A stretch of 64,000 nucleotides of DNA from a virus. The position numbers and the translations under genes were made by a program. Shown here in pieces: positions 1 to 46,284 of the stretch. Location: the IMG/VR virus record IMGVR_UViG_3300035670_000075, positions 32,001 through 96,000 of that record; one strand, written 5' to 3'. Every line of letters begins with the position of its first letter. The stretch's first letter is position 1. The notes beneath the pieces were generated by a model. It made no database searches and was not told the DNA's origin. It saw only the letters and a list, made by a program, of their open reading frames with translations.

Positions 1-3000
1 CGATAGTCGAGAACGGGCCTTCTTTGGCGGGGGAGTGCGGGAACAGTCTGTCAACCCATGCGAACACGTCAACAATGGCTGTCCACAGGTTTTGTGCTGC
101 GCTGGTGACGCCAGCGGAGAAGGTTTCGATGAGCGAGGCACCGAATGCGCTGTAATCAAAATTCATTGCTGAGTACAGCACACCGCCAATAATCAGCATT
201 GATTTTTTGATAGCAGCAGCAACCGCAATTTCAACCACGCTCAGTATGGCGAAACTTTGCTGTATCGCCATTGCCGTCGCCTGTTTGCCATACGCAGACA
301 GCGCTTTCAGTAGCAATTGCGCGCCAGGAATCGACAATCCAGCAGAGATCAGATTAACCACCCGATACCCAAGTGCCGCCCAGTCGATTTCCTTAACCCG
401 CTTGGTGAGGTCGGTGAAGATGCCAAGCAGCGCATCACCGAGCACACTGAAACGGAATTCGCCCTTGAACAGCGTATTGATTGCCGCCGCGACAGTGCCG
501 ATTAAGCGCCCGGCGATAACCAACAGGTGAACCAACGCACCCAAACCGCCAGCCATGAGTTGCATGGCGTGGGCGGCGAAGCGGAATGCTTCGGCAAGAC
601 CTTTGCCGAGCAGCATACCAACACCCTCTCCGGCGCTGGCAAGTCCGACGAGTTCGACTTGCGCCGCGCCTGCGGTATCCATCATCAGCAGTAAACCGGC
701 GACGGTTGGCGCAACGGCAACAGCCAGCGGCTTGAAGGCTTCGACGAGCGGCTTCATGGATTGCGCCATGTTGTTCAGAAAGTCGGTATCGTGAAAGGCC
801 GAGAAAACCCCGCTTAGATGGTCGCCAAACACGCGCAATTCTGCGCTGACAATTTTCAGCGACGGCAACATGCCCTGCATCAGTCCGGTGAAGAACGGCT
901 CAACTGCAATCCAAGCGCGGGCGAAACCCTCGCCAGCCGCGCGACCGAATGAGGCAAAATAACCAATCGCCACGCCCATTACGTCGATGGTAGCGACCAG
1001 CAGTTTCGTCCAGCCGTCAAGCGCTGCCATGAGCACGCCGCCGATGATTTTGCCGAGGAAGTGGGCGGAACCGGCGAAGAATACCAGGGTGCTGCGGCTG
1101 TCTTGGCTGGCAGCATCAAGCCCTAACAGCATGGACACAAAGCGCTGCACGGCGGCGATGACGGGGGCAAGCGCAGTGGTGATCGGCTCGAAGGCGGCGG
1201 CTAGAGCGCCTTGGATGGTCAGTAGAGCATCACCAAGCGGGCTGAGTGCGTCGAGCAAACCTTTGCCGAAGTAGATTGCCATGTATTTGCCGACTTCAGC
1301 GGCAAAGGCAATCACGTTGCGCAGCGGGCGTGTCAGCAGTTCTACATAACCAGCGGCAACCGCCGCAACTTCACCCATAAACTTGAATGCATTGGTCAGG
1401 CGGATGATTCCGTTTGTACCTGACTGCGTAAGGAATCTGAGCGCAGGAGAAAGCCCTGAGTAAATCGTCAACTGAAGCTCTGACAATGCTGATTTATACA
1501 ACCGCACATCGCCAGCCAGGTTTTCCAGGCGGGTTTTCGCCATCATTTCAGAGGTTTGGCTGTCAACATTCTTCAGGCTGTCGGCGTAACTCCCCATTTC
1601 CTTAGTCGCGCTACCAGTGGCTTTAACCAGCACATCCATTACGGTTAGCGCGTTCATACCGAAAATGCGCTTGTAAATACCTGCTCTATCAGCCTCATCC
1701 AAGTGCGCTGTGCGCTCTCTGATCTCCGTGAGGAGTTCGGTCATGGACTTCATGCCGCCCGTGGAGTTCTTGGCGCTGACACCGATTGCGCTTAATGCGC
1801 CGCCAACATCGTCAGCCAAGGCTTCGAGGTCGCCGATGTCGTCACCGGCTTCAATCATTTGGTTGGCAAATTTCTGAAAATCTTTATCGGCAATCTTGGT
1901 CGGTGCTGCCAGGCGCAGTAATGCTTGGCGTAAGGCTGTGCCTGACATGGAGCCTTTCAGTGCGGCGTCGCCAGCCAAGCCGATTGCGGCTGACATTTCT
2001 TCAAACGACATACCCAGTGATTCTGAAATTGGCGCGACGTACTTGGCTGATTCGTAGAACTGTTCGAGATTGACGTTACTGGTGCTCATCACTTTGGCGA
2101 ATACATCGACCATGTGCGGCAGTTCGTCAACGCTCTTGCCGAAGCCTGTCATCAGGTCTGATACGATGTCTGATGTCCGCGCCAACTCAGTGCCACCGGC
2201 AGCGGCGAGATTCAGCACCTCGCCTGTAGATTTCATGATTTGCTGCGTGCTGAAGCCGGCCATCCCAAGGTAATATTGCGCGTCTGCCGCTTCTTTAGCG
2301 GTAAATGCGGTTGCTTGCCCCAGGCTGCGTGCCTGGTCTTCCAGTAGCTTAAGCTCTTTGCGTCCGTCTCCGGTATTGATGTTGATACCTTTGACGGCGG
2401 CGACACTGGCAATCGCTTCCTCGAACGCCATGCCAGTATTGACAATGGCATCGAAGCTCTTGGTGAGCGTGCGAAAACCAACCACAGCCGCCGCGACCGC
2501 ACCGCCGACCAAGGCTGTTTTGGCAATCAGGCGACCCAAAGAGGCTTCGCCAACCTTGGCGCTGCCGGACATGTCTTTGATGTCGGCGTTAAATTCTTTG
2601 ATGTGTTTGCCGGATGTTTGATAGGCGGATGCCGCGCCGGACTTGAACGAACCCCAAAAACCTGCGAGTTGCGCCGGGGCTGATTTTAGGAATGAAGCAA
2701 AGCTTGAGAATGCGTCTTTGAAGGAGAAATTTTTGATGAAATTCGCAATGCCGCTACCAGCGCTGCGGAGCATAGTGACGAAGTTGGCGACTGTCAGTTG
2801 GCTGCGATCAAAGTTCTGCGCCATCGTCCACGCGGCGACGCTGGTGGCAATGATTTTGGCTTGGACGAACGAGGCGATACGCGCCAGCCTGTCTAAGCTG
2901 ACGTATGAAATTACTAAAATATTGTTCAAGCCGGAGAGCGTTTGCATGATCACACTGACTTTGGTAAACGTGTTCATGCTTTGCGCCAACCCGTAAGTGG

Positions 3001-3700
3001 CAACGGCAAGCTTAGCAATCTCCTCACGGTTGCGAACTGCACTAACCGCCATGCTTGCCAACATTAAACTGTGACCACTGCTGGCGGCGGTCGCCTCGCG
3101 GGTGGCTGCGGTGTTTTCTTTTAACGCTTGGGTATCTGCTTGCGTGTTCGCGGCAACAGGCGCAGGTAGAGCCGCAATTTTTTCTCTCTCGGCACGAAGT
3201 TCTTGGAAAGACTTGATGAGTTCTTCATTCGCCTGCTTCAGTTTTTGCGTAGAAGTCAATGCGTCGTCGAGTGCTTTGACGCCGTCTCCATCGACAGACA
3301 CGGTGATTTTTTGATTGATTACCGCCGTCCCGCCAATCCCTGCTGCCTTTTTGCCGGTCTTGTCCAGTTCTTTGTTGAGTTCACGCACTTGCTTGGTGAT
3401 GTTGCCGATAGCGGACGCGGATTGGTTTAGGCTTTTCGCGTCTAGTGCGCCACTGACTTTGACGGCATTCTTCTGGAACTGCTCGAACTCGCGTGCGGTT
3501 TTGGCAAGCTCGGCAAATTGCGCCAAGCCCTCCATGCTTTTCGCCATGCGCTCGGCGTCTTGCATCATCCTCCGCGTGGACTTGTCGAACCGCTCGGCAG
3601 TACGCTCGGCGGCTTCGCCAAGCTTGTCAACTTTCTTGCCAGCGCGATCAATGTCGCTTTCGTTGACGCCAATTTTGTATTCCAAGTCGTGTTCTTGCAT
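1..3700 (-). CDS. Tail tape measure protein, TP901-type core; 3' end runs off the window (>1230 aa)
   Basis: Absent from the ORF track, presumably because no stop falls in the window. Starts MQEHDLEYKIGVNESD at 3700; contains ATAFTAKEAADAQYYLGMAGF...LKGSMSGTALR; in-frame LFPHSPAKEGPFS at the left edge. Confidence 0.9.
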   Translation of the reverse strand, partial: MQEHDLEYKIGVNESDIDRAGKKVDKLGEAAERTAERFDKSTRRMMQDAERMAKSMEGLAQFAELAKTAREFEQFQKNAVKVSGALDAKSLNQSASAIGNITKQVRELNKELDKTGKKAAGIGGTAVINQKITVSVDGDGVKALDDALTSTQKLKQANEELIKSFQELRAEREKIAALPAPVAANTQADTQALKENTAATREATAASSGHSLMLASMAVSAVRNREEIAKLAVATYGLAQSMNTFTKVSVIMQTLSGLNNILVISYVSLDRLARIASFVQAKIIATSVAAWTMAQNFDRSQLTVANFVTMLRSAGSGIANFIKNFSFKDAFSSFASFLKSAPAQLAGFWGSFKSGAASAYQTSGKHIKEFNADIKDMSGSAKVGEASLGRLIAKTALVGGAVAAAVVGFRTLTKSFDAIVNTGMAFEEAIASVAAVKGININTGDGRKELKLLEDQARSLGQATAFTAKEAADAQYYLGMAGFSTQQIMKSTGEVLNLAAAGGTELARTSDIVSDLMTGFGKSVDELPHMVDVFAKVMSTSNVNLEQFYESAKYVAPISESLGMSFEEMSAAIGLAGDAALKGSMSGTALRQALLRLAAPTKIADKDFQKFANQMIEAGDDIGDLEALADDVGGALSAIGVSAKNSTGGMKSMTELLTEIRERTAHLDEADRAGIYKRIFGMNALTVMDVLVKATGSATKEMGSYADSLKNVDSQTSEMMAKTRLENLAGDVRLYKSALSELQLTIYSGLSPALRFLTQSGTNGIIRLTNAFKFMGEVAAVAAGYVELLTRPLRNVIAFAAEVGKYMAIYFGKGLLDALSPLGDALLTIQGALAAAFEPITTALAPVIAAVQRFVSMLLGLDAASQDSRSTLVFFAGSAHFLGKIIGGVLMAALDGWTKLLVATIDVMGVAIGYFASFGRAAGEGFARAWIAVEPFFTGLMQGMLPSLKIVSAELRVFGDHLSGVFSAFHDTDFLNNMAQSMKPLVEAFKPLAVAVAPTVAGLLLMMDTAGAAQVELVGLASAGEGVGMLLGKGLAEAFRFAAHAMQLMAGGLGALVHLLVIAGRLIGTVAAAINTLFKGEFRFSVLGDALLGIFTDLTKRVKEIDWAALGYRVVNLISAGLSIPGAQLLLKALSAYGKQATAMAIQQSFAILSVVEIAVAAAIKKSMLIIGGVLYSAMNFDYSAFGASLIETFSAGVTSAAQNLWTAIVDVFAWVDRLFPHSPAKEGPFSTI

Positions 3701-3838
3701 ACTAAAAGCCTAGTGTTTATGCGGTTCGATTGGGTATTATAGCATTGGTTTACTGTGTGTTGACAAATTTGTTAGCGGCGTTTATTATGCTTGTCGCTGT
3801 TTGTGTTAACTTAAATCGCCTAGCAATTAACGATCATC

Positions 3839-4087
3839 GTGGAGATTACAATGTTTAATCGCTTTAATCTTGATTACAGAAAACCCGCCAATAAAGGCGG
3901 GGAAAAACGAGAGCCGGTGATGAATTTAGCTGAACTAGCAAGGGTGACAGGTAAAAGTCGTTCAGTTTTAGAACTACGCTTGAAAAAAGCAAACCCGCCA
4001 TTAGAGGTGAAACTAATATTGAAAGGTAAAAAATATTACAGTCGTGAAGAGATGTTAAAATTGGGCAGTAGTATTGGAGTCGAGTAG
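3839..4087 (+). CDS. Small HTH DNA-binding protein
   Basis: MNLAELARVTGKSRSVL resembles an HTH; divergent from the tape measure gene. Confidence 0.5.
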   Translation: MEITMFNRFNLDYRKPANKGGEKREPVMNLAELARVTGKSRSVLELRLKKANPPLEVKLILKGKKYYSREEMLKLGSSIGVE

Positions 4088-4120
4088 TGTGTTTTCCGGA
4101 TCAATAAGGAAATTAATAGA

Positions 4121-4321
4121 ATGGACAAGCCAAGCCCAATCAAAGCAGAGTTAAGCGCCAGACTGATTCCAATTGCGCCGCAAGGTTTTCGACTGTTAAA
4201 GACAAAGGACAGGACACAGAACGGCGATTATTTTTATGTCCACGGGCATTGGCATCCGGTGTTCAAGGCGGGCGTGGAGATGGATGCTCGGTGTACGCAA
4301 CATTGTAGACCAGGTGGTTAG
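4121..4321 (+). CDS. Hypothetical phage protein
   Basis: ORF with AAGGA RBS in a tight operon. Confidence 0.5.
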   Translation: MDKPSPIKAELSARLIPIAPQGFRLLKTKDRTQNGDYFYVHGHWHPVFKAGVEMDARCTQHCRPGG

Positions 4322-4322
4322 T

Positions 4323-4769
4323 GTGACTGATAAAAAACAAAACCAGTTGAATCAAATCAAAGAGTTCATCAACTCTCAAACCTTCAGCGAAATAGCGCCG
4401 CTGGTTGCGCACGCGATTAATCTCGGCTACCTCAGTTTTGATGGACTTGCGTATCCTGATGAAATCTCAAAAGCGCTGCGCAGAATGCGCAAGGTTGCGA
4501 AGCGTGAGACGCATAAGATTGTCAAAGCTTGCAATGCGGCAATCTCGTCTGGTTTCGTGTCGTTTGACGGTATCGTGACAAAAGATAATGTCGAGTTATT
4601 TTTTAAGTCTGCGCTTAAGCAGTTGGGAGATGGCTCTGGCGGCGGCATGGGTAGAATTGCCAATATGCTCTTAAGCAGTGGCTACAATTCTGAATTCAAG
4701 CCAATCAGTGATGAGTTTATTCTTAAGGTCAAGAAGAAGCTGATTGAAATGATGTTGAGTAATGGGTGA
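4323..4769 (+). CDS. Hypothetical protein
   Basis: GTG start just after the previous stop; operon context. Confidence 0.5.
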   Translation: MTDKKQNQLNQIKEFINSQTFSEIAPLVAHAINLGYLSFDGLAYPDEISKALRRMRKVAKRETHKIVKACNAAISSGFVSFDGIVTKDNVELFFKSALKQLGDGSGGGMGRIANMLLSSGYNSEFKPISDEFILKVKKKLIEMMLSNG

Positions 4770-4782
4770 TTGAGAGGCAGCT

Positions 4783-5688
4783 ATGAACCAGGTCTTATTT
4801 GGCGACTGCCGCGACAGCATGAGAAAGCTTATTGCTGACGGCGTGAAGGTGCAGACGTGCATTACGTCGCCACCTTATTATGGCTTACGTGACTATGGGC
4901 ATGAAGGGCAAATTGGACTGGAAGAAAAACCAAGCGAGTATGTTGGTAAGTTGGTGGAAGTGTTCTCGCTGGTGTGGGATTTGTTGGTTGATGATGGGGT
5001 GATGTGGGTTAATCTTGGGGATAGCTACGGAGGAGATAGAGGGAATGTCAGCCACGCTCCTGATAACAAACACAAACATAATGCTGCCGATACTCCGGGT
5101 AAATCGAAAAGTGGTACGTTAAGAAAACAGCTTCTTGGCATCCCGTGGCGCGTAGCATTCGCATTGCAAGATGCTGGCTGGTATTTGCGTCAAGACATCA
5201 TCTGGAGCAAGCCTAATGCAATGCCGGAAAGCGTTACTGATCGCTGTACGAAATCTCATGAGTATGTTTTCTTACTAGCCAAGCAAGAACGGTATTATTT
5301 TGATAACGAGGCGATAAAAGAGAAAGCTAATCCAGATAGTTCTATTCGCGACAGAGATGCGACCAGACTTAACAACACGCCAGGCAGAACAAAAATGGGT
5401 GGACTCAAGAAAAACGATTACGAAATGAGAAATAAGCGCAGCGTATGGACAGTGCCAACCAAGCCATACAGCGGCGCGCACTTCGCAGTATTCCCGCCAG
5501 CGCTTATCGAACCTATGGTGTTGGCGAGTACGCGCGCTGGTGATATTGTGCTTGACCCGTTTTTAGGTAGCGGCACGACCGCGCAAGTGGCGCAAGACTT
5601 GGGGCGCAACTGGATAGGCTGCGAACTTAACCCGGATTACGCGCAACTGCAACAGCAGCGCACAGCGCAGCAGGCGTTGTGCTTGTGA
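4783..5688 (+). CDS. DNA methyltransferase, N4C/N6A beta class
   Basis: TSPPY catalytic motif, HFAVFP, VLDPFLGSGTT SAM-binding motif, IGCELN. Confidence 0.93.
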   Translation: MNQVLFGDCRDSMRKLIADGVKVQTCITSPPYYGLRDYGHEGQIGLEEKPSEYVGKLVEVFSLVWDLLVDDGVMWVNLGDSYGGDRGNVSHAPDNKHKHNAADTPGKSKSGTLRKQLLGIPWRVAFALQDAGWYLRQDIIWSKPNAMPESVTDRCTKSHEYVFLLAKQERYYFDNEAIKEKANPDSSIRDRDATRLNNTPGRTKMGGLKKNDYEMRNKRSVWTVPTKPYSGAHFAVFPPALIEPMVLASTRAGDIVLDPFLGSGTTAQVAQDLGRNWIGCELNPDYAQLQQQRTAQQALCL

Positions 5689-5707
5689 TGGTAGAGGATT
5701 AATAGCT

Positions 5708-6256
5708 ATGCAACAGGCAAAAAACATAGAAGGCTATTCTGGTGATGCAGGATGGTTTTGCGACATGTCATTGGATGCGCAAATTATTAAAAAATTTGGC
5801 GTTCTCGACCCTGGGTTGACACTGATGTATTTGATTCGCAGATTCGGCTTCCCGCTGCATGGCTGCGACGAATACAAAGAAATTGCGCAATGGCTAATAA
5901 CAACCGCGCACGACGGAATTATATTGGGTGTGTCACCTAAGCCGCATAGAGTTTATTTTCATTACTTGGCATCTAAGCAGTTAATAAGCAGTTTATACTC
6001 CTCAGACGAGGCAGAAAAAACAAAAACTCAGGAATTTGTTTTGCTTCATTTGATTAATGCTGTCGAAGATATGATTAACAAACCAATCTCTGTCAGAGAC
6101 ACTTGGTTTAACCCAATTGCAACTGGCGATCATCTACTTGATGGACACATCCCTGAAGATGATGACGATGACTTTATCAATGTCGCTGAGCGTCACGTAT
6201 CCAGTGGATATGGACTTTTGTTCTGGAATGAAAAAGGCTTCGACATTGATTTGTAA
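5708..6256 (+). CDS. Hypothetical protein
   Basis: 182-aa ORF with GAGG RBS. Confidence 0.6.
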   Translation: MQQAKNIEGYSGDAGWFCDMSLDAQIIKKFGVLDPGLTLMYLIRRFGFPLHGCDEYKEIAQWLITTAHDGIILGVSPKPHRVYFHYLASKQLISSLYSSDEAEKTKTQEFVLLHLINAVEDMINKPISVRDTWFNPIATGDHLLDGHIPEDDDDDFINVAERHVSSGYGLLFWNEKGFDIDL

Positions 6257-6443
6257 ATGCTGCGGTAAAGAATTTCCGCAAACCAGCACGCCAAAAATAT
6301 ACTGCTCGCGGGCTTGCGCGATACGAAAGGTAGGGATGCCACAAATTATTGGCAAGGAGAAAAGAAAAAAGCTGCGTAAACAGGGTGTGTGGTATACTGA
6401 AAAACAAGTTCCTTTAGGGGACTTGGTTGATTACAATGAATAA
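6228..6443 (+). CDS. Small zinc-finger protein
   Basis: CKCCGKEF...YCSRAC motif. Confidence 0.45.
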   Translation: MKKASTLICKCCGKEFPQTSTPKIYCSRACAIRKVGMPQIIGKEKRKKLRKQGVWYTEKQVPLGDLVDYNE

Positions 6444-6502
6444 ACAGAATCTCGTTGGCATCCGTTTCCAGGTATCGGTAAAACCTGGATGATTTTAGAG
6501 TG

Positions 6503-6569
6503 TATTTACAAATCCATATTGTCGCGCGCTTCGACAAGCTCAGCGAGCGGCAATATGGATTTGTAAATA
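6503..6569. repeat. Long hairpin (perfect 19-bp arms) with REP-like CTTCGACAAGCTCAG core, directly upstream of tmRNA
   Basis: TATTTACAAATCCATATTG (6503-6521) / CAATATGGATTTGTAAATA (6551-6569). Confidence 0.8.
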
Positions 6570-6577
6570 GATTTTAC

Positions 6578-6914
6578 GGGGACGACAAGGCTTCGACAGT
6601 GTGAGTGAGGTATGTCGTGCAGGTAGGTGAGAGTGTCACCTTAAAAAAACTCAAACCAGCAATCGCAAACGACGAACGCTACGCCGTAGCTGCTTAAGCT
6701 ACGCTGCATCGCGGCGGTGCTTGTATACCGCGAATCGCAGTCATTTACAAGATCGTCATGCCTGATGTCTGCGACGGCTTGATTAAATCGGCGGACTCTC
6801 CGCGCCTAAGCCTTTCGCTCGGCGTCGTCGCGGTAACCCAATAGAGCGAATAAACCTGTAGATCGGCATGGTGAAACATGCTGGACGTGGGTTCGATTCC
6901 CACCGTCTCCACCA
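6578..6914 (+). ncRNA. ssrA: tmRNA (transfer-messenger RNA), tag ANDERYAVAA
   Basis: Acceptor stem GGGGACG/CGTCTCC-ACCA with G3:U70; TTCGAC near the 5' end; T-arm GTGGGTTCGATTCCCAC; tag ORF gca aac gac gaa cgc tac gcc gta gct gct taa at 6665-6697. Confidence 0.95.
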
Positions 6915-6938
6915 TGTTTATTTTTAACCCATATAAAA

Positions 6939-7133
6939 ATGCCTGAAGAAAAAGATAGGTACTGTTCGTTTTGTGGACAGCCTAGCGACATCGTGGATTT
7001 GCTTATCGCCGCGCCTGGAGAGCAGGCGTTTATCTGCAATGAGTGCGTGGTGTCATGTGTTGACCTAATCAATAAAGTTTACATCGAGAGACGCAATGGG
7101 AAACAGAACAAACGCAAAGAAGTTCAGAGCTAA
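6939..7133 (+). CDS. Stand-alone ClpX C4-type zinc-binding-domain protein
   Basis: YCSFCGQPSDIVDLLIAAPGEQAFICNECVVSCVDLI matches the ClpX N-terminal domain pattern (CSFCG..LIAGP..ICxECV..C..II). Confidence 0.88.
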   Translation: MPEEKDRYCSFCGQPSDIVDLLIAAPGEQAFICNECVVSCVDLINKVYIERRNGKQNKRKEVQS

Positions 7134-7419
7134 TCTACGCCAACGCACGACTGAAGCACTCCTCCAACATTCAAAGCAGATGCTCGCGGGAGTAGCCGCC
7201 GAAACCAAAGAAGATGCGGCTATCAATACGCCGGTCGATACTGGTGAACTGCAAGAAGGATGGGATACTGAAGCTTCTGACAATGGGCTTACGCAGTCAA
7301 TTTTTAATGACACCCCGTATGCGAACGAGCGTGAGTTTGCGCCTGGCGGTGGCATGTTGCGCATGGCGACGTTGCCCGGCGTAATGGAAGATCGCGGAAA
7401 GAGGCACTGGAACAAATGA
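7096..7419 (+). CDS. HK97 gp10-like tail/neck component
   Basis: TPVDTGELQEGW and NDTPYA..EF motifs. Confidence 0.7.
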   Translation: MGNRTNAKKFRANLRQRTTEALLQHSKQMLAGVAAETKEDAAINTPVDTGELQEGWDTEASDNGLTQSIFNDTPYANEREFAPGGGMLRMATLPGVMEDRGKRHWNK

Positions 7420-7811
7420 ACACTTGTGTCAGTATCAATCTCATTGCCGCAGTAGGTAAGAGCGGACAAATTGGGCTTGACGGCGTGCTGCCTTGGTATG
7501 AACCGCGCGACTTGGCGTGGTTTCGCTGTATGACAATGAATAATATCGTTGTTGTTGGTTGGAGAACGGCGCAGAAGCTACCGTCGTTACCTGGGCGAGA
7601 GTTGATTGTATTTCAGCGTGGCGGGATGTCGATTGATGATATTATCCGGCACGCTAACGCCGCCAACAAAGATATTTTTGTGTGCGGTGGCGCTGCAACC
7701 TACAATGCTTGGATGAGTAAGATAGACAGGTTTTATATCAGCCGTATTGATTACGATGGTGAGGCTGACACATTTATGGACGTATCAATATCATGTCGTA
7801 CAGCCAGTTAA
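7416..7811 (+). CDS. folA: Dihydrofolate reductase (short form)
   Basis: IAAV..GQIG..G.LPW...DLAWFR..T...VVVG.RT...LPGR; VCGGAATY; ADTF. Confidence 0.88.
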   Translation: MNTCVSINLIAAVGKSGQIGLDGVLPWYEPRDLAWFRCMTMNNIVVVGWRTAQKLPSLPGRELIVFQRGGMSIDDIIRHANAANKDIFVCGGAATYNAWMSKIDRFYISRIDYDGEADTFMDVSISCRTAS

Positions 7812-8227
7812 AAAGAATAGCCGCTAAAGCGGTCAAAGTCGGACAGCAGTGGACTGATCCTGAAAAGCAATCTATCACCTTCATCCACACGCCGGTTGCC
7901 ACGCAAGCGGCGTATCGCCCAGGTCAGCGCTACACGCAACCTTCAGTGACTCCAACAGAATACCCTGAAGCCACTGGCTTTCTTGTGCGTGCTGAATTCA
8001 AGGAATCAGAGAACGGACATGATGTAATCGTCCACGGCTGGATGTTTACCAAAGAGATTGATAAGTTAGGTGACGTGATAGCCGAGATTGTCAGTTCGCA
8101 AGCAGGCATCGAGAAGCTGTGCCAAGGCGGTTCCGAGTGGACGGTGCAGACTGCTTACGGTTTATGCAAAGTGCGCGCCGTGGTGATGAATAACCCAATG
8201 GTTGTTTTTGAGTTGCGGGGTGTTTGA
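7793..8227 (+). CDS. Putative head-closure/neck protein
   Basis: Size and N-terminus (MSYSQLKRIAAKAV) resemble head-tail joining proteins; near the gp10-like gene. Confidence 0.4.
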   Translation: MSYSQLKRIAAKAVKVGQQWTDPEKQSITFIHTPVATQAAYRPGQRYTQPSVTPTEYPEATGFLVRAEFKESENGHDVIVHGWMFTKEIDKLGDVIAEIVSSQAGIEKLCQGGSEWTVQTAYGLCKVRAVVMNNPMVVFELRGV

Positions 8228-8378
8228 TGATGAAAGCATCAAGTTTATTACTGGCGTGCATGATTGGATTAGCGCCCATTGTCGGTGAGCGACAGAAGAA
8301 GGTGATAGGAAAGCATCATCGCGCAAGCAAGGATGTTAAGGCACGCCGTAAGCGGAGTAGACGTAGATAGTTTTAACC

Positions 8379-8429
8379 CACACAAAAAAGCCCGCCATGC
8401 GTTTATTGCGTGGCGGGCTTTTTTGTGTG
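8379..8429. terminator. Bidirectional rho-independent terminator
   Basis: CACACAAAAAAGCCCGCCATGC...GCGTGGCGGGCTTTTTTGTGTG between convergent operons. Confidence 0.9.
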
Positions 8430-8435
8430 TCACGA

Positions 8436-8744
8436 TCATCTATTGTAAGTATAAATAACCTTATCGCCTTGCATTACAATATCGGCTGACGCCAATGTGT
8501 TCATTGCGAACCCGCAATTACAGCAATATATTGCGGGTTTATAAAAGCCTTCTCCGCTAATATTCCAACCAATGTATTCACCAGGATTTCCGCATGAGCA
8601 GCACTTCCTTATGACCAATGGGATATTACGAAAGTCCAAACTTGCATCCAAATCAAAAACAGTAGGCTCATTTGATTCATGGCTACCAATTAAGCCTCTC
8701 AAAATTGATTCTGCTTGTTCTGCGCTTTTTATTTCATGTAGCAT
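8436..8744 (-). CDS. Hypothetical protein with two CxxC-like motifs
   Basis: CCSCG...CCNCG; GAGG RBS. Confidence 0.55.
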   Translation of the reverse strand: MLHEIKSAEQAESILRGLIGSHESNEPTVFDLDASLDFRNIPLVIRKCCSCGNPGEYIGWNISGEGFYKPAIYCCNCGFAMNTLASADIVMQGDKVIYTYNR

Positions 8745-8767
8745 ACCGACCTCTAATGTTGATTTTT

Positions 8768-10171
8768 TTAACGCGCAGCCAGCACAAACGCTTCGTCTGC
8801 GCCGAATCTGCTTAGCGGTACATCTGGAATTTCCTCAATAACACGCTTATTCCACAGTTTATAGTCGGCACTACCATACTGCTGCTTTGCTTTTATAACC
8901 GCATCTGATACCTGCTTATTACTCACATACGGCGTTTGCAATGTCAGCGCGCTTGCGCCGTAAACAAATATGCACTCGCCTTTTTGCGATAGCTTCTGCG
9001 CCCCCGACATGCCAAGAATGGTTTGACTGGCATTGTGGTCTGGAACGCGGAATGCGATACGCGCATCAAAGTTGTTACGCATCGCGGTATCAATAATCTG
9101 CGCGTCAGGCGACTGCGTTGCGACCATCGGCAGGATGCCAGCGCTTCGTCGCAGCGATACCAAACGAAAGAAAAGTGCTTGGCATTCTTTAATGATGGGC
9201 TTTTCTTCTTCAGTCAGCATCTTACTGCGCGTCAACATCGATAACTCATCAATAACCACCATGATAAACGGGAATGGCAGCGGCTTACCATCCTCAACGT
9301 AGTTGTCGAGTTTCTTTTTGCCGCGCGCTTGCAGTTCAATTTGCCGCCTATCGCCCTCAGCATCAAGCCACTGCAAAATCTCGTAGGCAGACTGCAAATC
9401 TTTGGCGATTGGCGCTAACAGGTGCGGCATGTCATCGTAAAAACCAAGCTCTGCACCATTCTTCAGGTCGATGCCGACCATGCGGAAAACGTTCGGTTTG
9501 TTATTACTGACCCATTGCACGATTGCACTGTTGAGGAAGTTTGACTTACCCCAACCCTTAGTTCCAGCAGCCAAATAAGATGCGTCACGACCGACGTAAA
9601 TCTTTTTACCTTCAGCACTTTCGCCGAGGTAGATATTTAGCGGGTGTGGATCAGGATTTTGGTATTCAGCGTGGGCGGAAACTTCATTTGCTGCTGACTG
9701 CTCAACAACCTGCGCCACCTTTTCTTGTACAACCGCAACAGGCATCTGCTCACTTCTTTGTTGCATCTTCTTCAGTGCCGCCAAAGCCTGCTGATACCTC
9801 GCGCTAACAGATTTGAGTTCGCCAGAAAGATGCTCGACTTGTGCGACGTACTTACGCTCAGCCTCGTTGCGCGCCGCTGCAATATCAGCGGCGCGAGACT
9901 TCTTCAGCGCATCGAGTGCGCTTGAAGTCACCTTCAGTTGGCGCGTGACCGACTTGAAATCGGCTTCTAATTTATCGTAAGCCAGTCTCAGGTCGGCAAA
10001 GCGGCTTTTAATCGCGTCAATCTTGCCTATCAGTTTGGTTTTCTCGCCATTCTTCCACTGACGCCACCGGGCGTCGTAGCGCTTCCATAGTTCTTTGTGA
10101 GCTATCAACGCTCCCCACATCGCCGTGGGGACGATAAAGAACGCTGCCAGTGTCCAGTTTGGATCAAGCAT
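8768..10171 (-). CDS. FtsK/SpoIIIE-family ATPase with N-terminal TM helix and coiled coil
   Basis: Walker A GTKGWGKS, IDLKNGAEL, Walker B VVIDE, RSAGI..VATQSP, RIAFRV, GAQKL. Confidence 0.9.
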   Translation of the reverse strand: MLDPNWTLAAFFIVPTAMWGALIAHKELWKRYDARWRQWKNGEKTKLIGKIDAIKSRFADLRLAYDKLEADFKSVTRQLKVTSSALDALKKSRAADIAAARNEAERKYVAQVEHLSGELKSVSARYQQALAALKKMQQRSEQMPVAVVQEKVAQVVEQSAANEVSAHAEYQNPDPHPLNIYLGESAEGKKIYVGRDASYLAAGTKGWGKSNFLNSAIVQWVSNNKPNVFRMVGIDLKNGAELGFYDDMPHLLAPIAKDLQSAYEILQWLDAEGDRRQIELQARGKKKLDNYVEDGKPLPFPFIMVVIDELSMLTRSKMLTEEEKPIIKECQALFFRLVSLRRSAGILPMVATQSPDAQIIDTAMRNNFDARIAFRVPDHNASQTILGMSGAQKLSQKGECIFVYGASALTLQTPYVSNKQVSDAVIKAKQQYGSADYKLWNKRVIEEIPDVPLSRFGADEAFVLAAR

Positions 10172-11951
10172 TTGCTGCTCCTTCGAGTTTGAAATTAGCC
10201 CACATTCCTGAGTCTATTTCCGGTTGGATTTTTTTAGTTCCGTAGCGCGATATATGCCCGTCATTGCATTTGAATGCTTCTTGAGCAGTTGACGCTTTTT
10301 CGCCCAACACAACCATCCGGTAACGAAACTTGCACGTCCAGTCATTACAATTTTCAATGACACGTCCATTTTCGTCTAAACCAGGATGCCCAAACCCTTT
10401 TCCAGTCACTTCATCCCACGACTGACTTAGCTTGGCGATTTCATCAGAAACCGATGCGGTTTCATGTGCCGATTCAACAACGCCAGCAGGCATTGCAAAA
10501 TCACGTTGCGATGCACGGCTTAAAAAATCAATCACGTCAGCTTTCTGCTGGACTGGTTCAACATCTCCAAAACTAACGGCAACAGCCGTAGCGCCCTGGA
10601 CTGGGTATTGAACCACTGCGTCATGACTTCCACCGTAGGCTGTTACACCAGCACTGGCAACCACTGGTGAAGATGTGGCGCTGAATCCGCCGCCGAACAC
10701 GCTGCCTTGTGCGCTTGGTTGCTCTTTGGCGGGTTCTTTTCTGGTGGTTGGGCGTGGCGGTACGGGGTCGTTATCGCCATCATCATCGCCAATACTTGCC
10801 AATTTGTCTCTGGCTTTTTCAATTTGCCGAGAGAAAAATCTTTTTGCCGCGCCAGGCAGAATAGATGCTTCATTATCTGCAACCTCGTCAATAATAGTGC
10901 CGTCATCATCTCGCAAAAATCTTAACTGCCCCTTATACATGACATGCAGCGCCCATAAAATAGCGAAACTCGCCGTCATAGCCAATAGCGTAGAGACTCT
11001 TTCAGGTGACGTTCCTACCAACTCGCCAATGCGATGTATCGCAGGCATATAAACATCGCCACCTGCGCTCCCGCTTTTAATTACAGACTGGTCGTATTCT
11101 CTCTGCGCAATAACAACCGCCTGCTCTGCCGCGTTCAACTGCTGAGCATACTGATGGTACATTGAATACTTACCAAGTTCAGCCTGTAATTGAGCTATCA
11201 GCGGTGAGGTTGTTTCTGCTGGCTTTGATTGCTTAATTCTGTTCCAGTCGTCGCATACAGCCTTCGCTGCTGATTTCATCAACCCATAGGACGTTGTTTT
11301 AGGCGTACATGATTGGTCGGTGATTTGTCCTCTGGTAAACTCGGCGTTGTATTGAGCATTCCAAAATTCGGCAACCTGCTTATTGTAAACGATCATCTTG
11401 CTTTCATTTGCAGCGTTAAGACGCTCGCGTTCAGCATCTATTTGAGCTTGTATGCTGCTGTACTTGGATACGTTTTCAGATAACTCAGATTCGCTGAATT
11501 TCCCGCCAGCACCAACTTTACTCAGTTCATTAACTGGAACTCCCGCTATTCTTGCCATTTGATTTTTTGCGGCATCCAAGTTTGAGCTTGAAGCGGTAAC
11601 ACCGGCAGAGCTTACGATGCTTTTAACCCTGTAGTCATTGAATACATCGGTGAAAAATGATGTCATCGAGAACATGGTAATAACAAGCGTAAGCCCATTC
11701 ACAATGCGCGCGCTATTGGCAAGTCCATGATCCCCGATTTCAAGCGCAATAATTTCAGTTGCAATTAGCATTCTTCTGATGTAAACCAGCCCAATTGCAA
11801 AGCCAATGAGGATTGCTTGCGTGAGTTCATCATCTGACATGCGCGCCCATGTGTACGCTTCAGCAGCGAATACCAAGATCAGCATCCCCCATATGGCTGT
11901 GCTGTAGTTTGCGGCTATATCAGTTCTCTGTCTGTTGGTAACTGCCATCAC
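10164..11951 (-). CDS. Multi-pass membrane protein with long coiled coil and low-complexity C-terminal region
   Basis: Three N-terminal hydrophobic helices, a coiled coil and a fourth TM segment; overlaps both neighbouring genes. Confidence 0.7.
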   Translation of the reverse strand: MMAVTNRQRTDIAANYSTAIWGMLILVFAAEAYTWARMSDDELTQAILIGFAIGLVYIRRMLIATEIIALEIGDHGLANSARIVNGLTLVITMFSMTSFFTDVFNDYRVKSIVSSAGVTASSSNLDAAKNQMARIAGVPVNELSKVGAGGKFSESELSENVSKYSSIQAQIDAERERLNAANESKMIVYNKQVAEFWNAQYNAEFTRGQITDQSCTPKTTSYGLMKSAAKAVCDDWNRIKQSKPAETTSPLIAQLQAELGKYSMYHQYAQQLNAAEQAVVIAQREYDQSVIKSGSAGGDVYMPAIHRIGELVGTSPERVSTLLAMTASFAILWALHVMYKGQLRFLRDDDGTIIDEVADNEASILPGAAKRFFSRQIEKARDKLASIGDDDGDNDPVPPRPTTRKEPAKEQPSAQGSVFGGGFSATSSPVVASAGVTAYGGSHDAVVQYPVQGATAVAVSFGDVEPVQQKADVIDFLSRASQRDFAMPAGVVESAHETASVSDEIAKLSQSWDEVTGKGFGHPGLDENGRVIENCNDWTCKFRYRMVVLGEKASTAQEAFKCNDGHISRYGTKKIQPEIDSGMWANFKLEGAANA

Positions 11952-13048
11952 ACTTCTCCTGTTTTGATTAATGGTTCTATGTCAGCGTAAACTTGTTGTG
12001 ACTTAATAAATGACGCAAACTTGTTTGCTGCGTTTACGGTATTAAACTCAACGTGAATATGACCTCCTGTTGAGCCTTTTGATGATTGCTTATACTCATC
12101 AATTACATCAAAATCTTTATCTTTCATCCCGGCAGATAACAGCCATCCATTAATTTTGCTTGCATAGTTGGCGCTCTTGTCGTGCTCAGAGATTATGAAA
12201 TCCAAAGCCAATCCATCCGTATGCAGGCTTTCTGGTTTTTTATTTTTGTGCCACGCATCATTGAGCGACGTAAACCTAATAAAAGAGCTATCAACATCGG
12301 CTTTCTGAATCATTCCAGCTAAAATCCAGATAGCCTCATGGCTATCTCCGCCTTCAACAGCCTGCCCGTATCGACCTCCTTTGATCACTAGCTCGCTTTT
12401 TTGATACTGCCTAAAATCTGAGGTTATATTTGCAACGTAGGCTCTTGTTTCTTTGAATGGAGGAATCGTGTTTTGGTACTTGCGCACGTTACCTTGTCCG
12501 GCGTTATATGCCGCCAAAGCCAAATCAACAGAGCCAAACATTTTCAGTAACTTGGCGAGATAAGATGCTCCGCAATCTAAATTTTTATCTATGTCGAAAA
12601 TGTATTCTTGCTCAAGACCGCATTCACCGCTTGCAGTAGCAGGCATCAACTGAGTTAAGCCTGAAGCACCTTTTGGTGAGCTAATGTTTTCAATCCATAC
12701 CGATTCCTTCGTTATAAGCGAACGAAACAAATACTTGTCAATGCCGTGGCTATCAGCATAGCAATCTGCTTTATTGCGCTTTCCTTCCACTTCGGCGCAA
12801 TTGCCAGTAATGGGCTTGTTATTTAACAAAAAATCAAACGACAACTCCTGTTTGGCAATGCTTGCAGAAGCACTTCTAATATAAAAATCAAAGCCTGGAA
12901 TACTCGGCATCTTGAGGAAATCGAAAGCCACCATGACAGCTATGATGCATAGTGCTGGCGCAATGTTGTACCGTAACGGATACCTGTCATTCCAAAAAAC
13001 CTTAACCACGATTAAGGTGATAATTACTCCAAATATAGACTCGTTCAT
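11948..13048 (-). CDS. Membrane-anchored lytic transglycosylase (SLT) fused to a peptidase M15-like domain
   Basis: KES...SPKGASGLTQLMPATA, ALAAYNAG, IPPFKETRAYV; C-terminal SLHTDGLALDF...GHIHVEF. Confidence 0.85.
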   Translation of the reverse strand: MNESIFGVIITLIVVKVFWNDRYPLRYNIAPALCIIAVMVAFDFLKMPSIPGFDFYIRSASASIAKQELSFDFLLNNKPITGNCAEVEGKRNKADCYADSHGIDKYLFRSLITKESVWIENISSPKGASGLTQLMPATASGECGLEQEYIFDIDKNLDCGASYLAKLLKMFGSVDLALAAYNAGQGNVRKYQNTIPPFKETRAYVANITSDFRQYQKSELVIKGGRYGQAVEGGDSHEAIWILAGMIQKADVDSSFIRFTSLNDAWHKNKKPESLHTDGLALDFIISEHDKSANYASKINGWLLSAGMKDKDFDVIDEYKQSSKGSTGGHIHVEFNTVNAANKFASFIKSQQVYADIEPLIKTGEV

Positions 13049-13070
13049 TGTTTGATTCTTCTATGTGATT

Positions 13071-13139
13071 GATATATGATTTGCACATATACTCGTATAC
13101 CAAATACTATATCATAACGATATATGATGCAAGCATATA
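13071..13139. promoter_or_regulatory. Two GATATATGAT-N5-CATATA operator-like repeats in a divergent promoter region
   Basis: Copies at 13071-13091 and 13119-13139. Confidence 0.5.
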
Positions 13140-13178
13140 TGCGTCACATATCGCCAAACGCGACACAAAGGATATACA

Positions 13179-13553
13179 ATGGCTGCGCAAGCTAAACTTA
13201 CTGATGAGTTAAATCGTGATGAATGCCTCGGTGATGAGGTATTCATGGGGAGAGTTATCGCTGTGGCGGAAGGAAAACCGAAAGTAAAGCAGCTATCAGT
13301 GCCGGGTGTTCTTTTTGATGAATGCCAAGAATCGTCGAGAGCGCTTGGACTGCCGTTTAATGAGTGGATCGTTCAAGCCATGCGTGACAAGCTTGCGCGT
13401 GAGCGCGGCGTATCTTTATTGACGGAACCCGATATAAAACTGATAGAGGAAACGGCGCGCAGAATGGCTGAGCAAGTCGGTGATGTAGTTGCGGAAAGAA
13501 CCGCTGGTCAGTACGGAATGCTGATCGAGCTATGCAGGAATGGAAAAGACTAA
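13179..13553 (+). CDS. Ribbon-helix-helix-like regulator
   Basis: QLSVPGVLFDECQESSRALGLPFNEWIVQAMRDKL. Confidence 0.55.
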   Translation: MAAQAKLTDELNRDECLGDEVFMGRVIAVAEGKPKVKQLSVPGVLFDECQESSRALGLPFNEWIVQAMRDKLARERGVSLLTEPDIKLIEETARRMAEQVGDVVAERTAGQYGMLIELCRNGKD

Positions 13554-13726
13554 AAAAAACGCCGCCATAAAAAAATCAGACGGCGCGAAGCGAGAAAAGA
13601 AAAGCAGTGCATAGCCTCCATGCCATGCACTGCTGATACCTATAAGAACTCCATTTGAGCGCCATTCAGCCAGCGCACATCTTCGCCTGAAATCCATTGG
13701 CTAGGGTTCATGCTGGCTGTATTGAT

Positions 13727-19928: not shown

Positions 19929-20444
19929 CTATCTATCATCCATCAGGCGATTGATTTTATCTTCGCTTTCTTGCTTTTTACGCATGTACTCAGCACGCAT
20001 TTGTTGTAACTCTTCGAGCGTCCAATCGCTGCTGCTGAAAAGATCGCGTGTTTTTTGGCTAAAATCGCTTTCGCTTATTTCGCTGTTTTTCTCGTCGCTG
20101 TTGCCATTGCTTTTGTCGCTAGGCTTGTCATCTTCTATGATCTTACCAAACCTAGACTCAAATAATTTTTTCAGCGCCCCGAATATGTAGGGGAGTCCAA
20201 CATAACCAGCAAAAACAGACATGCCAGTAGTGAACACAGTGTCGTTTTTGAGTTCAGGGAAAACCACTACCGTAACCGCAGCAAAAGCAATTGCAGCAAA
20301 GCCACCGCCCAAAACTTTACCGATAATATTCCTGGTAGTTAGATTGCCCTCAGCATTGAATACTGCCCCCAATGCAGATAGTGCGCCGACCAGCCAAATC
20401 AAACCTACTCTTGTGATCTCGGCATAGATATTTGGCTCCTGCAT
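19929..20444 (-). CDS. Putative holin
   Basis: Three TM segments with GG.FAA/FAGYVG and a highly charged C-terminus. Confidence 0.6.
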   Translation of the reverse strand: MQEPNIYAEITRVGLIWLVGALSALGAVFNAEGNLTTRNIIGKVLGGGFAAIAFAAVTVVVFPELKNDTVFTTGMSVFAGYVGLPYIFGALKKLFESRFGKIIEDDKPSDKSNGNSDEKNSEISESDFSQKTRDLFSSSDWTLEELQQMRAEYMRKKQESEDKINRLMDDR

Positions 20445-20758
20445 TGGTTTTCATCGCCCTGTGCTATTCTGTGTTCATGACTTCTTAATTCTTGTTGAAT
20501 AATCGATCTAGTTTCACGACCTGATGAAATATAATAGTCATTGGCTATGAAGCCTACCCATGCTGATATGCCTATCGAAACAATCATCACAGCAATCATT
20601 ACAACCCGGAAAAGCCGATTAAAACCACGCTCTATGTTGTAGTCTGAGTGCAACTGTGAAATTTCAAATTCCAGTCGCTCCATTCGCTCTTTGTTTAATT
20701 TGCTGTCTGCTTCGATGCGAGCCAAGCGACCCTCAATGCTTTCGGCAAAGTCACCCAT
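20405..20758 (-). CDS. Coiled-coil plus single-TM membrane protein
   Basis: RLARIE coiled coil; hydrophobic VVMIAVMIVSIGISAWVGF. Confidence 0.55.
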   Translation of the reverse strand: MGDFAESIEGRLARIEADSKLNKERMERLEFEISQLHSDYNIERGFNRLFRVVMIAVMIVSIGISAWVGFIANDYYISSGRETRSIIQQELRSHEHRIAQGDENQCRSQISMPRSQE

Positions 20759-21320
20759 TCAATATCTCCACAAAACCGCCGTTTCCGTCTTCCATGTAAT
20801 GCCACTGGTAATCTAAAGAGTCCCATCGCCATACATGTTGCCAACGGTTATCAACTACATAATCACCTTCGTAGGTGTGAACGACTAGCACCATATGGTA
20901 TTCGGTACGTTCTCTATCTGCCCAACAGGTAGCTAATCGTAACTGGCTACGGTCAATACCTTCTAACATCAATAACAGTAATGCGAATACTGCGTGTCCA
21001 TCACAGTCATCAGCTATTTTGCCAGCAGGTGTTAAGTTTGGTACTTCCCAGTTGTCTATTTCACCATCAGGTGTGTAGATAAAGTTACGAAATAGAAAAC
21101 TTCTGACATCTTGAAGTATCGTTAAGATACTGGCGTTGTCGGAATGTAATTGATAACCCTCAATTCCGTTAAGACTGTATTTAAGGTAGGCAACGCGTAA
21201 ACTTCGCTGGAAAGCTTTGTAGCGTTGATAATGTGAATCAGAAAGCCAATGCTTTTCGCCGGTTTGAATAAACGGTTCTACAGCGAAAAACTCTTTTAGC
21301 TTTCTAAACAGCCATTTCAT
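20751..21320 (-). CDS. Transglutaminase-like cysteine peptidase (BTLCP/C93, LapG-like)
   Basis: DNWEVP, DDCDGHA, YHMVLVV, YVVDNR: Cys-His-Asp triad. Confidence 0.8.
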   Translation of the reverse strand: MKWLFRKLKEFFAVEPFIQTGEKHWLSDSHYQRYKAFQRSLRVAYLKYSLNGIEGYQLHSDNASILTILQDVRSFLFRNFIYTPDGEIDNWEVPNLTPAGKIADDCDGHAVFALLLLMLEGIDRSQLRLATCWADRERTEYHMVLVVHTYEGDYVVDNRWQHVWRWDSLDYQWHYMEDGNGGFVEILNG

Positions 21321-35514: not shown

Positions 35515-36375
35515 ATGAGTTTTATAACTCCACCCATCAAAATCCAAGGACGCAAAACAGCCCTGCTTGGCGAGATAGCCAAGTCAATGCCGCAGCGCAT
35601 CGACGGCATCTACTACGAGCCTTTTCTTGGCTCCGCTGCGGTGGCGGTTAATTTTGCCAATCGCGCCAAACAGGGGGCGAGACTGTCTGATGCAAATATT
35701 TGCATTGCGGAGTTCTATCAAAGTCTAGTTTACGGGCGCGTGTCGCCAATGCACTTCGGTCAACACTTGCTGCACGAAGGCAAGGAGTTGGCAAGAATTG
35801 GCGAGAGGCATTACTACAGTGTACGCGAGCGGTTCAATAGCAACTGCAACGTCAACGAACTTGCGCTTGATTTGCTGTTCCTGAATCGCACCTGCTACAA
35901 CGGATTGATGCGCTTCAATCGTAGTGGCGACTTCAATGTGCCGTTCTGCAAAAATCAAAACAGATTGTCAGCTAAGTTTTGCGCCAGCGTAGAACATTCT
36001 GCCGAACAAACGATGGCGGCTTTATCTGGAGGCGAGATTGAGCATTGCGACTGGGAGAATTCAATAAATACCGCTGGCAACGGCGATTTTATATTCCTAG
36101 ACCCACCGTATCTTGGGCTTGAGGCAAATTACATTGCGTCAGGCTGGAGCGAAAAAGACGAAAACGACTTGTACGCCTTCTGTCTCAATACGCCAGCGAA
36201 ATTCATGCTGACAACCTGGGCGGAAAAGCATGGCGGCAAGCCTGCGCGTAATGAGTTCTTCTACTCGCGGTGGGCGAAGAATTTCAATGTTCGCGAAGTC
36301 GAGCACCAATATATCGTCGGCCCGAAAGCGATTAATCGCGGACGGGTTGTTGAGGCGATTGTTACTAACTACTAA
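35515..36375 (+). CDS. Dam-family (D12 class) DNA adenine methyltransferase
   Basis: YYEPFLGSAAV, LNRTCYNGLMRFN..G.FNVP, FLDPPY. Confidence 0.92.
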   Translation: MSFITPPIKIQGRKTALLGEIAKSMPQRIDGIYYEPFLGSAAVAVNFANRAKQGARLSDANICIAEFYQSLVYGRVSPMHFGQHLLHEGKELARIGERHYYSVRERFNSNCNVNELALDLLFLNRTCYNGLMRFNRSGDFNVPFCKNQNRLSAKFCASVEHSAEQTMAALSGGEIEHCDWENSINTAGNGDFIFLDPPYLGLEANYIASGWSEKDENDLYAFCLNTPAKFMLTTWAEKHGGKPARNEFFYSRWAKNFNVREVEHQYIVGPKAINRGRVVEAIVTNY

Positions 36376-36385
36376 CGAGTCAAAC

Positions 36386-37477: not shown

Positions 37478-37478
37478 C

Positions 37479-39136: not shown

Positions 39137-39137
39137 T

Positions 39138-39596: not shown

Positions 39597-39612
39597 GTTT
39601 AAGGAAACACCA

Positions 39613-40098: not shown

Positions 40099-40099
40099 T

Positions 40100-43142: not shown

Positions 43143-43171
43143 TACCTTAAACATACATCACATAATTAACC

Positions 43172-43194
43172 ACTCCCGCTTCGGCGGGAGTTTT
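43172..43194 (+). terminator. Rho-independent terminator
   Basis: ACTCCCGC-TTCG-GCGGGAGT-TTT. Confidence 0.75.
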
Positions 43195-43204
43195 GCGAGG
43201 CTAT

Positions 43205-43432: not shown

Positions 43433-43477
43433 ACCAATCAACATACCGCGCTTCTGCGGTATTTTAGCGAGAACACA

Positions 43478-44091: not shown

Positions 44092-44130
44092 AGTTAATCT
44101 AACACCAAATAAATAAACGAGGACTTTTTT

Positions 44131-44364: not shown

Positions 44365-44398
44365 TTTTATTAGTCAAATATAAATATCAGGGGAAATC

Positions 44399-44962: not shown

Positions 44963-44967
44963 ATGCT

Positions 44968-45352: not shown

Positions 45353-45353
45353 T

Positions 45354-46281: not shown

Positions 46282-46284
46282 ACA

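Follow-up and report, generated by a model that had tools for sequence, protein, structure and literature searches.

Here we describe a four-gene operon of IMG/VR virus record IMGVR_UViG_3300035670_000075, a 105,387-bp genome that IMG/VR classes as linear and CheckV estimates to be ~95% complete. The window analysed is the 64,000-nucleotide stretch formed by bases 32001-96000 of this record, and coordinates refer to the window unless stated otherwise. The operon occupies positions 8436-13048 on the minus strand and encodes, in order of transcription, a membrane-anchored murein hydrolase, a membrane protein that we call protein X, an FtsK-like ATPase and a small cysteine-rich protein. The four genes are translationally linked, bounded by terminators and placed opposite a small divergent gene for a putative regulator. 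Their carrier is a tailed phage with genes for TerL, portal, protease and tape measure; it is distant from cultured phages, with a best TerL match that is only 37% identical. The phage is temperate and encodes two tyrosine recombinases, one of them with an arm-binding domain.

The hydrolase gene (366 amino acids; 11948-13048) and the long open reading frame (ORF) of protein X (595 amino acids; 10164-11951) meet where the hydrolase stop codon TGA overlaps the start of X (GTG, or ATG one codon on), which is preceded by AGGAG. The stop codon of X in turn overlaps the ATG of the FtsK-like gene (467 amino acids; 8768-10171) by 8 nt. A preliminary description of this DNA had proposed that these three genes overlap, that their products carry N-terminal transmembrane (TM) segments and that they form an operon. 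The long minus-strand ORFs and overlapping junctions were confirmed, and hydropathy places two such segments in the hydrolase, three in X and one in the motor. As an operon the trio stands as a linked unit to which a further gene must be added: the fourth gene (8436-8744), with a GAGG site, lies 23 nt after the FtsK-like stop codon and encodes a 102-amino-acid soluble protein with a CxxC...CxxC pattern, a putative zinc ribbon. This protein had no match in Pfam, PHROGs, PADLOC or NCBIfam, and a PDB sequence search returned nothing below E 1. Because the fourth gene sits between the FtsK-like stop codon and the terminator, the unit ends at ~8379 rather than at 8768.

The bidirectional terminator noted previously is a 23-bp perfect-stem hairpin between an A run and a T run (8379-8429) that folds stably on both strands (plus strand, -42.4 kcal/mol; minus strand, -38.1 kcal/mol); a simple terminator scan overlooked it, and it was seen on folding. 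At the other end, a 130-bp control region (13049-13178) separates the hydrolase gene from the divergent plus-strand gene, which encodes 124 amino acids (13179-13553). This region contains the duplicated operator-like repeats that had been claimed, found by a repeat search as two 26-nt copies (13071-13096 and 13119-13144) that lie 48 nt apart, are 73% alike and are each partly palindromic. Plus-strand sigma-70-like hexamers at 13052-13080 and 13151-13180 are consensus matches only. The divergent gene is present as described, while its assignment to the ribbon-helix-helix (RHH) class comes from a sub-threshold NCBIfam match (YlcI/YnfO_N, E 0.0013) and from its nearest Atlas clusters, language-model and structure neighbours that serve as a lead only and are mostly RHH families (RHH_1, RHH_9, Arc, MetJ, CopG; scores 0.88-0.90). 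Pfam gave no match and a PDB sequence search gave one unrelated engineered protein only; we regard the product as probably a RHH regulator. Farther upstream, a minus-strand terminator (13603-13634; 13-bp stem, 7 GC pairs, T-rich tail) ends the preceding gene, which encodes a 533-amino-acid protein of the tail region, and the operon would therefore be insulated from late read-through.

The hydrolase is predicted to be bifunctional, with an SLT lytic transglycosylase domain (residues 98-220) and a LAS/M15-like zinc peptidase domain (~235-340) held on a two-helix membrane anchor (1-47). The SLT domain matched PF01464 (E 1.2e-21; 76.9 bits against a cut-off of 21.3), its ES motif (E115 and S116) is invariant in the alignment of partner proteins, and residues 89-219 share the fold of Slt and MltC (Z 17.4, root-mean-square deviation 1.7 over 130 residues). 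For the second domain, the Pfam models M15_4, M15_3 and VanY gave no match. Its fold matches, over residues 218-340, include the C-terminal domain of VldE (Z 6.8), the zinc DD-peptidase 1lbu (Z 6.4) and the Hedgehog N-domain (Z 6.3-6.5), and all listed matches confined to residues 217-343 are LAS proteins (Z 6.3-6.8). The zinc motifs SLHTDGLALD and HIH are conserved in three of five partner proteins, and the two-helix anchor is retained in all five. As the loop between the anchor helices carries positive charges, the positive-inside rule indicates that both catalytic domains should face the periplasm.

Protein X had no family in Pfam, PHROGs, NCBIfam or PADLOC. From the N-terminus it consists of TM helices 1-3, a helical hairpin that reaches into the periplasm and bears a small tip, TM helix 4 (residues 319-337) and a cytoplasmic tail of 250 residues; the AlphaFold (AF2) model, with a predicted local distance difference test score above 90 for residues 10-345, places a long antiparallel helical hairpin between the third and fourth TM helices. 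No solved fold resembled this model beyond the background similarity that helical proteins show to one another (lowest E 0.065 in Foldseek, highest Z 7.7 in VIA). A word-based search of 5.8 billion proteins yielded one ortholog, and HMMER searches of 1.84 billion representatives with the N-terminal 360 residues yielded 23 remote relatives. X thereby appears to found an unnamed protein family. Two Atlas leads, DUF4407 and clusters automatically named 'SecY', were rejected on scores below 0.9 or a low TM-score, and publications naming DUF4407 deal with unrelated topics.

The hairpin tip carries the motif FW..HS.G....D..C.PK..YG(GG)LMK.AA..C. Two cysteines in this tip, separated by 18-20 residues (C215 and C233 in the X of the window), co-vary: 17 of 24 members have the pair and the other 7 lack both residues, as would be expected of a periplasmic disulfide, which the pair probably forms. 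The cytoplasmic tails are more varied: at least 12 of the 24 members end in a helix-turn-helix (HTH)-like tail (six), a four-cysteine type (three, plus P0138) or a CCCH motif (two). The HTH-like tails are of the resolvase type. Pfam HTH models match two of the 24 members with an E-value of at most 0.01, P0129 giving 2e-7 for HTH_7. A CxxC...CxxC tail was found in three members by pattern scan, P0138 being similar by eye, and the X of the window and its ortholog have tails ending in C-x4-C...C-x3-H. In the closest relatives (P0001, P0152) the membrane/periplasmic part is 21-23% identical to that of X, compared with 83% for the tail and 90% for the hydrolase (the latter against P0152), which suggests that the membrane/periplasmic module was swapped, if the P0001 and P0152 fragments come from one phage.

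Elsewhere in the window, a small plus-strand ORF (6117-6443) contains, at 6256-6443, the pattern CxxCG...YCSxxC, a motif type also seen in the zinc-ribbon tails of family members P0125 and P0128. It appears to be a free-standing copy of the X-family zinc-ribbon module in the same phage.

The FtsK-like protein consists of a single N-terminal TM helix (residues 6-24), a coiled-coil stalk of ~120 residues and an alpha/beta motor (~165-440). It matched PF01580 (E 1e-21; 77.8 bits against a cut-off of 24) and phrog_1358 (1.6e-56), and the Walker A (GTKGWGKS) and Walker B (VVIDE) motifs read from the translation are intact. The motor aligned to residues 180-471 of Pseudomonas aeruginosa FtsK; gamma (PF09397), 4TM (PF13491) and winged-helix domains are absent from the protein, which ends ~30 residues past the motor, whereas its cellular matches have both PF13491 and PF09397. 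Its matches among solved structures were FtsK (8e-23), the 'DNA translocase coupling protein' 6o1z (1.4e-16), EccC (4e-7) and YukB (9e-7). Since solved EccC and YukB score far below FtsK and 6o1z, DNA is favoured over protein as the substrate, while among NCBIfam models FtsK (4.1e-22) and EccCa (5.9e-20) are close.

Identity of the motor to cellular FtsK is 33-36%. It also matched actinomycete plasmid FtsK-like proteins (8e-33 and 1.4e-28), mycobacteriophage Omega gp203 (3.4e-33) and more distant plasmid proteins, including one from Clostridium perfringens (1.8e-20); matches in phage collections were all below 60% identity and covered the motor only. A maximum-likelihood tree placed the motor, together with the metagenomic protein P0003, on a very long branch of its own, outside cellular FtsK, the clade of actinomycete plasmid and mycobacteriophage proteins, and the C. 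perfringens plasmid protein. The tree took in no bona fide Streptomyces TraB, the actinomycete plasmid proteins in it being those that grouped with Omega gp203. In sequence the motor lies about equally far from cellular FtsK, from the actinomycete plasmid and phage translocases and from the more distant plasmid proteins. The likeness to Streptomyces TraB put forward in the preliminary description does not extend to family membership: the TraB model NF041214 scored 15.4 bits (E 0.0051), far short of its cut-off of 800, and no DNA-recognition domain follows the motor at the C-terminus. An EssC/EccC identity was likewise rejected, the protein having a single ATPase domain and scoring 71.6 bits against a cut-off of 509 for EccCa and 60 against 778 for EssC. 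PADLOC recognised only the FtsK-like domain, as found in SspH (1.7e-27), DndH and mads_8; it had no match for the other four proteins and found no partner gene of the SspH, DndH or mads_8 systems. Membership in a catalogued anti-phage defence system was rejected because a single domain matched and the full gene set was absent.

An X-family profile was searched against genomes of the order that holds Candidatus Parabeggiatoa, here called the Beggiatoa order, and matched 8 of 55. When 400 genomes drawn evenly from the class were surveyed, it matched only two, both belonging to that order, and none of the 398 others; the survey scored only the top candidates per genome, and four unpublished genomes in the class sample (G349, G195, G361, G093) count as non-matching entries only. 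The family thus appears taxonomically narrow and found mainly in prophages of this order. The relative P0129 is annotated from a Ca. Parabeggiatoa metagenome-assembled genome (NBMI01000046.1, positions 1-11431; locus L001), where a Mu-like prophage with MuA, a MuB-like ATPase, a Mu F-like protein and an exonuclease carries an X gene with no adjacent hydrolase. In a second Mu-like context (L017; G040:C1392) the X gene stands beside DnaB, again with no hydrolase. The presence of X, apart from any hydrolase, in the early/replication region of Mu-like prophages speaks against its working in the virion or in lysis.

At four further loci the gene immediately upstream of X encodes an SLT protein. Near these pairs are an integrase and a P2-like gpD/tape-measure block (L015; G007:C17), a lambda-type terminase (L016; G031:C208) and a NuoF-like gene (L019; G044:C64, where the X match is weak), the fourth pair being on a 3.5-kb contig (L018; G040:C1105). 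In L015, L016 and L019, the three loci whose flanks were read, the neighbours are unrelated to one another, and the pairs sit at module borders on their own strand, as accessory cassettes do. The linkage of three genes that had been proposed therefore survives in part: because the hydrolase-X pair recurs while the FtsK-like gene does not, the pair is the conserved core and the motor an addition seen only here and in one metagenomic ortholog, P0003.

The conditional guess of a filamentous gammaproteobacterial host gains indirect support from the distribution of the X family in the order of Ca. Parabeggiatoa, a filamentous sulfur bacterium; the host may belong to this order and is presumably Gram-negative. 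The locus DNA is present in three DNA runs of one subsurface-metagenome study, one of which may be the source, and no RNA run is listed as containing it. A megablast of the locus against phage and plasmid collections gave no match, and scans of IMG/VR and JGI metagenomes with the FtsK-like protein, X, their alignments and P0003 gave no confirmed relative; the broad X-family alignment was too diverse for use in pattern scans. A literature search on Beggiatoa phages returned no relevant system.

Taken together, these features lead us to favour, tentatively, the reading of the operon as a relaxase-free device that translocates double-stranded DNA (dsDNA) at the wall and inner membrane and may serve spread through septa. 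What fits it is the combination of an anchored dual hydrolase, a stalked partner whose relatives bear tails of nucleic-acid-binding type, and a tethered motor under private regulation, in a genome where neither VirB4 nor a relaxase of the two families searched was found. The absence of relaxase and type IV secretion genes stated for the window extends in our searches to six frames of the whole 105-kb genome, where VirB4 (PF03135), Relaxase (PF03432) and TrwC (PF08751) had no match while controls did, the relaxase result covering the two families PF03432 and PF08751. In such a device the tethered hydrolase would open a local hole in the murein and not the whole sacculus, while X would form the part spanning membrane and periplasm. 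Because relatives of X end in resolvase-type HTH or zinc-ribbon modules, its tail is proposed to hold nucleic acid or the motor, and a hexameric motor would pump dsDNA through or along the hydrolase-X assembly.

Neighbouring cells of a filament have common outer layers, and between them lie septa made of membrane, murein and membrane. In a filamentous host of this kind the phage DNA could be pushed into neighbouring cells without virions, working as TraB/Spd does in Streptomyces with no common descent. With the X family tied to the Beggiatoa order, this septal-spread idea is coherent. In its fullest form, a phage whose hosts are multicellular filamentous sulfur bacteria would bring a complete dsDNA conduit of its own, independent in origin of TraB/Spd, by which its genome crosses septa and a single infection colonises a whole filament; we hold this to be speculative and rather doubtful.

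Several observations weigh against the translocation reading. The tail of the window's X is an orphan domain and net acidic (26 K+R against 38 D+E), and it resembles neither FtsK gamma domains (hhalign probability 0.2%) nor the HTH tails of its relatives (<1%), so DNA binding by X would have to be read from the relatives. The trio is not conserved, the FtsK-like gene having a single known ortholog, P0003, which is 43% identical by BLASTP and 46% in the alignment; among five genomes of the order, including those with the hydrolase-X pair, none had an ortholog of the phage FtsK-like gene, and only cellular FtsK matched. The host assignment is itself indirect, and the sample is a subsurface metagenome. 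The phage transfer-messenger RNA (tmRNA) matched genomes of the Beggiatoa order only at its universally conserved ends, and its beta clamp is 40-47% identical to those of most Gammaproteobacteria with no preference for this order, so that neither singles out a host. Moreover, the passage of DNA through the membrane of the neighbouring cell is left unexplained by such a device. A complex prediction for hydrolase residues 48-366 with X residues 100-322 scored 0.00, which has no bearing either way. The tmRNA itself lies at 6578-6914 on the plus strand (ARAGORN; Rfam RF00023, 161 bits) and encodes the tag ANDERYAVAA.

A further point against translocation opens the main rival reading, in which the operon is a lysis module, with the SLT/LAS enzyme as endolysin, X as an accessory lysis protein (a regulator or spanin-like) and the FtsK-like ATPase in a side role or as a passenger. 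When all six reading frames of the genome were searched for eight classical murein-hydrolase Pfam families, the hydrolase was the sole match, and since no other was found a lysis role for the operon has to be weighed. In PHROGs the SLT domain falls with endolysins and lytic tail proteins; the coiled periplasmic hairpin of X, which probably contains a disulfide, recalls i-spanins; and the contigs of two prophages bearing the hydrolase-X pair carry no PF00959 lysozyme. We nevertheless consider this reading somewhat unlikely. A conserved two-helix anchor of such strong hydrophobicity is foreign to soluble and signal-arrest-release endolysins; the operon is shielded from late transcription and comes with a regulator of its own; and X, with its four TM helices and long cytoplasmic tail, occurs in Mu-like early regions where it has no hydrolase beside it. 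The operon itself includes no small holin-like gene.

There is also a candidate lysis cassette elsewhere, which counts against the same rival. It lies in the late region, on the minus strand at 19929-21320, just downstream of a tail-fibre-like gene, and encodes a 189-amino-acid Peptidase_C93 protein (LapG-type, papain-fold; PF06035, 1.5e-14), followed by a 117-amino-acid protein with one strong TM helix and then a 171-amino-acid protein that has two TM helices and ends in a highly charged segment. This is plausibly a separate lysis cassette. The C93-like protein had no match in a PDB sequence search, and C93 enzymes are not known to act as wall hydrolases.

A second alternative assigns the operon to membrane tethering and segregation, with X fixing episomal or replicating phage DNA at the membrane, the motor clearing or resolving DNA at the closing septa of a polyploid filamentous host, and the hydrolase remodelling the wall locally. 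In phage phi29, p16.7 tethers DNA to the membrane in this way, and FtsK motors work at septa. The phage is temperate, and relatives of X adjoin MuB-like ATPases, an exonuclease and a DnaB helicase and have nucleic-acid-binding tails. Such a function would give no role to the bifunctional wall hydrolase, the conserved neighbour of X; moreover, the motor is devoid of the gamma domain for reading polarity signals, and no partition genes were found among ~60 proteins scanned. We therefore think this quite unlikely.

Very unlikely, in our view, is superinfection exclusion or defence, in which an envelope complex of the prophage would intercept or expel incoming foreign DNA. It would suit the moron-like layout, with its own promoter region, a repressor-like gene and terminators inside the tail gene region, as well as the motor's matches to SspH and mads_8; the replaced membrane/periplasmic half of X, beside a near-constant tail and hydrolase, is a pattern of conflict genes. 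However, the PADLOC matches concern one domain only with the partner genes of those systems not found, a wall hydrolase has no obvious place in exclusion, and no exclusion system is known to use an FtsK motor. Protein export, with the ATPase as an EssC/EccC-like secretion motor and X as its stalked membrane partner, is highly improbable: the NCBIfam EccCa and FtsK scores are close and X has a long extracytoplasmic helical stalk comparable to the stalked membrane partner EsaA, but solved EccC and YukB fall far below FtsK and 6o1z, there is one ATPase domain, no WXG100-like gene was seen, and the inferred host is Gram-negative.

Other parts of the phage deserve brief description. Its large nucleotide-metabolism set and several DNA methylases are concentrated in a dense DNA-metabolism block (35515-48864) with Dam-type, C5 and N6/N4 methylases, the polymerase III beta clamp, dUTPase, an intein-interrupted class I/II ribonucleotide reductase, dCTP deaminase, thymidylate synthase and a DUF5131 protein. 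The tyrosine recombinases lie at 55689-56774 and 56919-58094, and the first is 27% identical to the integrase adjoining the hydrolase-X pair in L015. At 1-3700 and continuing upstream (genome 11590-35700, minus strand) is one unbroken ORF of 8036 amino acids with a tape-measure core (phrog_1533, 8.8e-77 on the part within the window) and no SLT, M23 or lysozyme domain. If translated as a single protein, it would imply an extremely long tail.

Two results hold regardless of whether the operon transfers DNA. One is a new family of membrane proteins, located by these searches in the Beggiatoa order alone, which is a conserved partner of an anchored SLT/LAS hydrolase; the second is a compact FtsK motor with a single-helix anchor. 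If the module does move DNA, a virus would here have adopted the principle of conjugation, and models of how infection, lysogeny and gene flow proceed among bacteria that form filaments, the large sulfur bacteria in sediments for example, would have to change.

With cellular FtsK/SpoIIIE and with TcpA of pCW3-type plasmids, the phage protein shares the PF01580 alpha/beta motor, the Walker motifs and N-terminal membrane anchoring. It differs from cellular FtsK/SpoIIIE in that one TM helix and a coiled-coil stalk replace the 4TM domain and in having no gamma domain.

The closest functional parallel comes from Streptomyces plasmid pSVH1, where SpdB2 binds murein, promotes wall lysis and forms pores and TraB acts as an FtsK-like pump (PMC4447253). 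Common to both arrangements are an FtsK-type dsDNA motor on the membrane, membrane partners, a divergent repressor, the absence of a relaxase or type IV secretion system and, if our inference about the host is right, filamentous growth. Unlike TraB, the window's motor has no C-terminal winged-helix domain, and no clt site was recognised, clusters of which were not searched for genome-wide. X is unrelated to Spd proteins, and the phage operon adds a dedicated bifunctional hydrolase. Its regulator is RHH-like where that of TraB/Spd belongs to GntR, and the operon travels on a tailed phage whose host is presumably Gram-negative. A Streptomyces plasmid-phage, pZL12, has reportedly been described (cited in PMC4487206).

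For the hydrolase, the nearest counterparts are PrgK of pCF10 and TraG of pIP501, TM-anchored enzymes that combine SLT and peptidase domains and are believed both to make a defined opening in the wall for a DNA channel and to bind a membrane channel protein encoded nearby (PMC11323569). The phage enzyme shares with them the TM anchor and the pairing of SLT with a peptidase domain, yet its second domain is LAS/M15-like where theirs is CHAP or LytM, its anchor is a two-helix hairpin, and it is not accompanied by the VirB4, VirB6 and VirB8 partners of those systems (VirB4 by search). For the wider idea of cells handing DNA to one another, DNA donation by TdtA in Thermus provides a precedent (PMC5365140).

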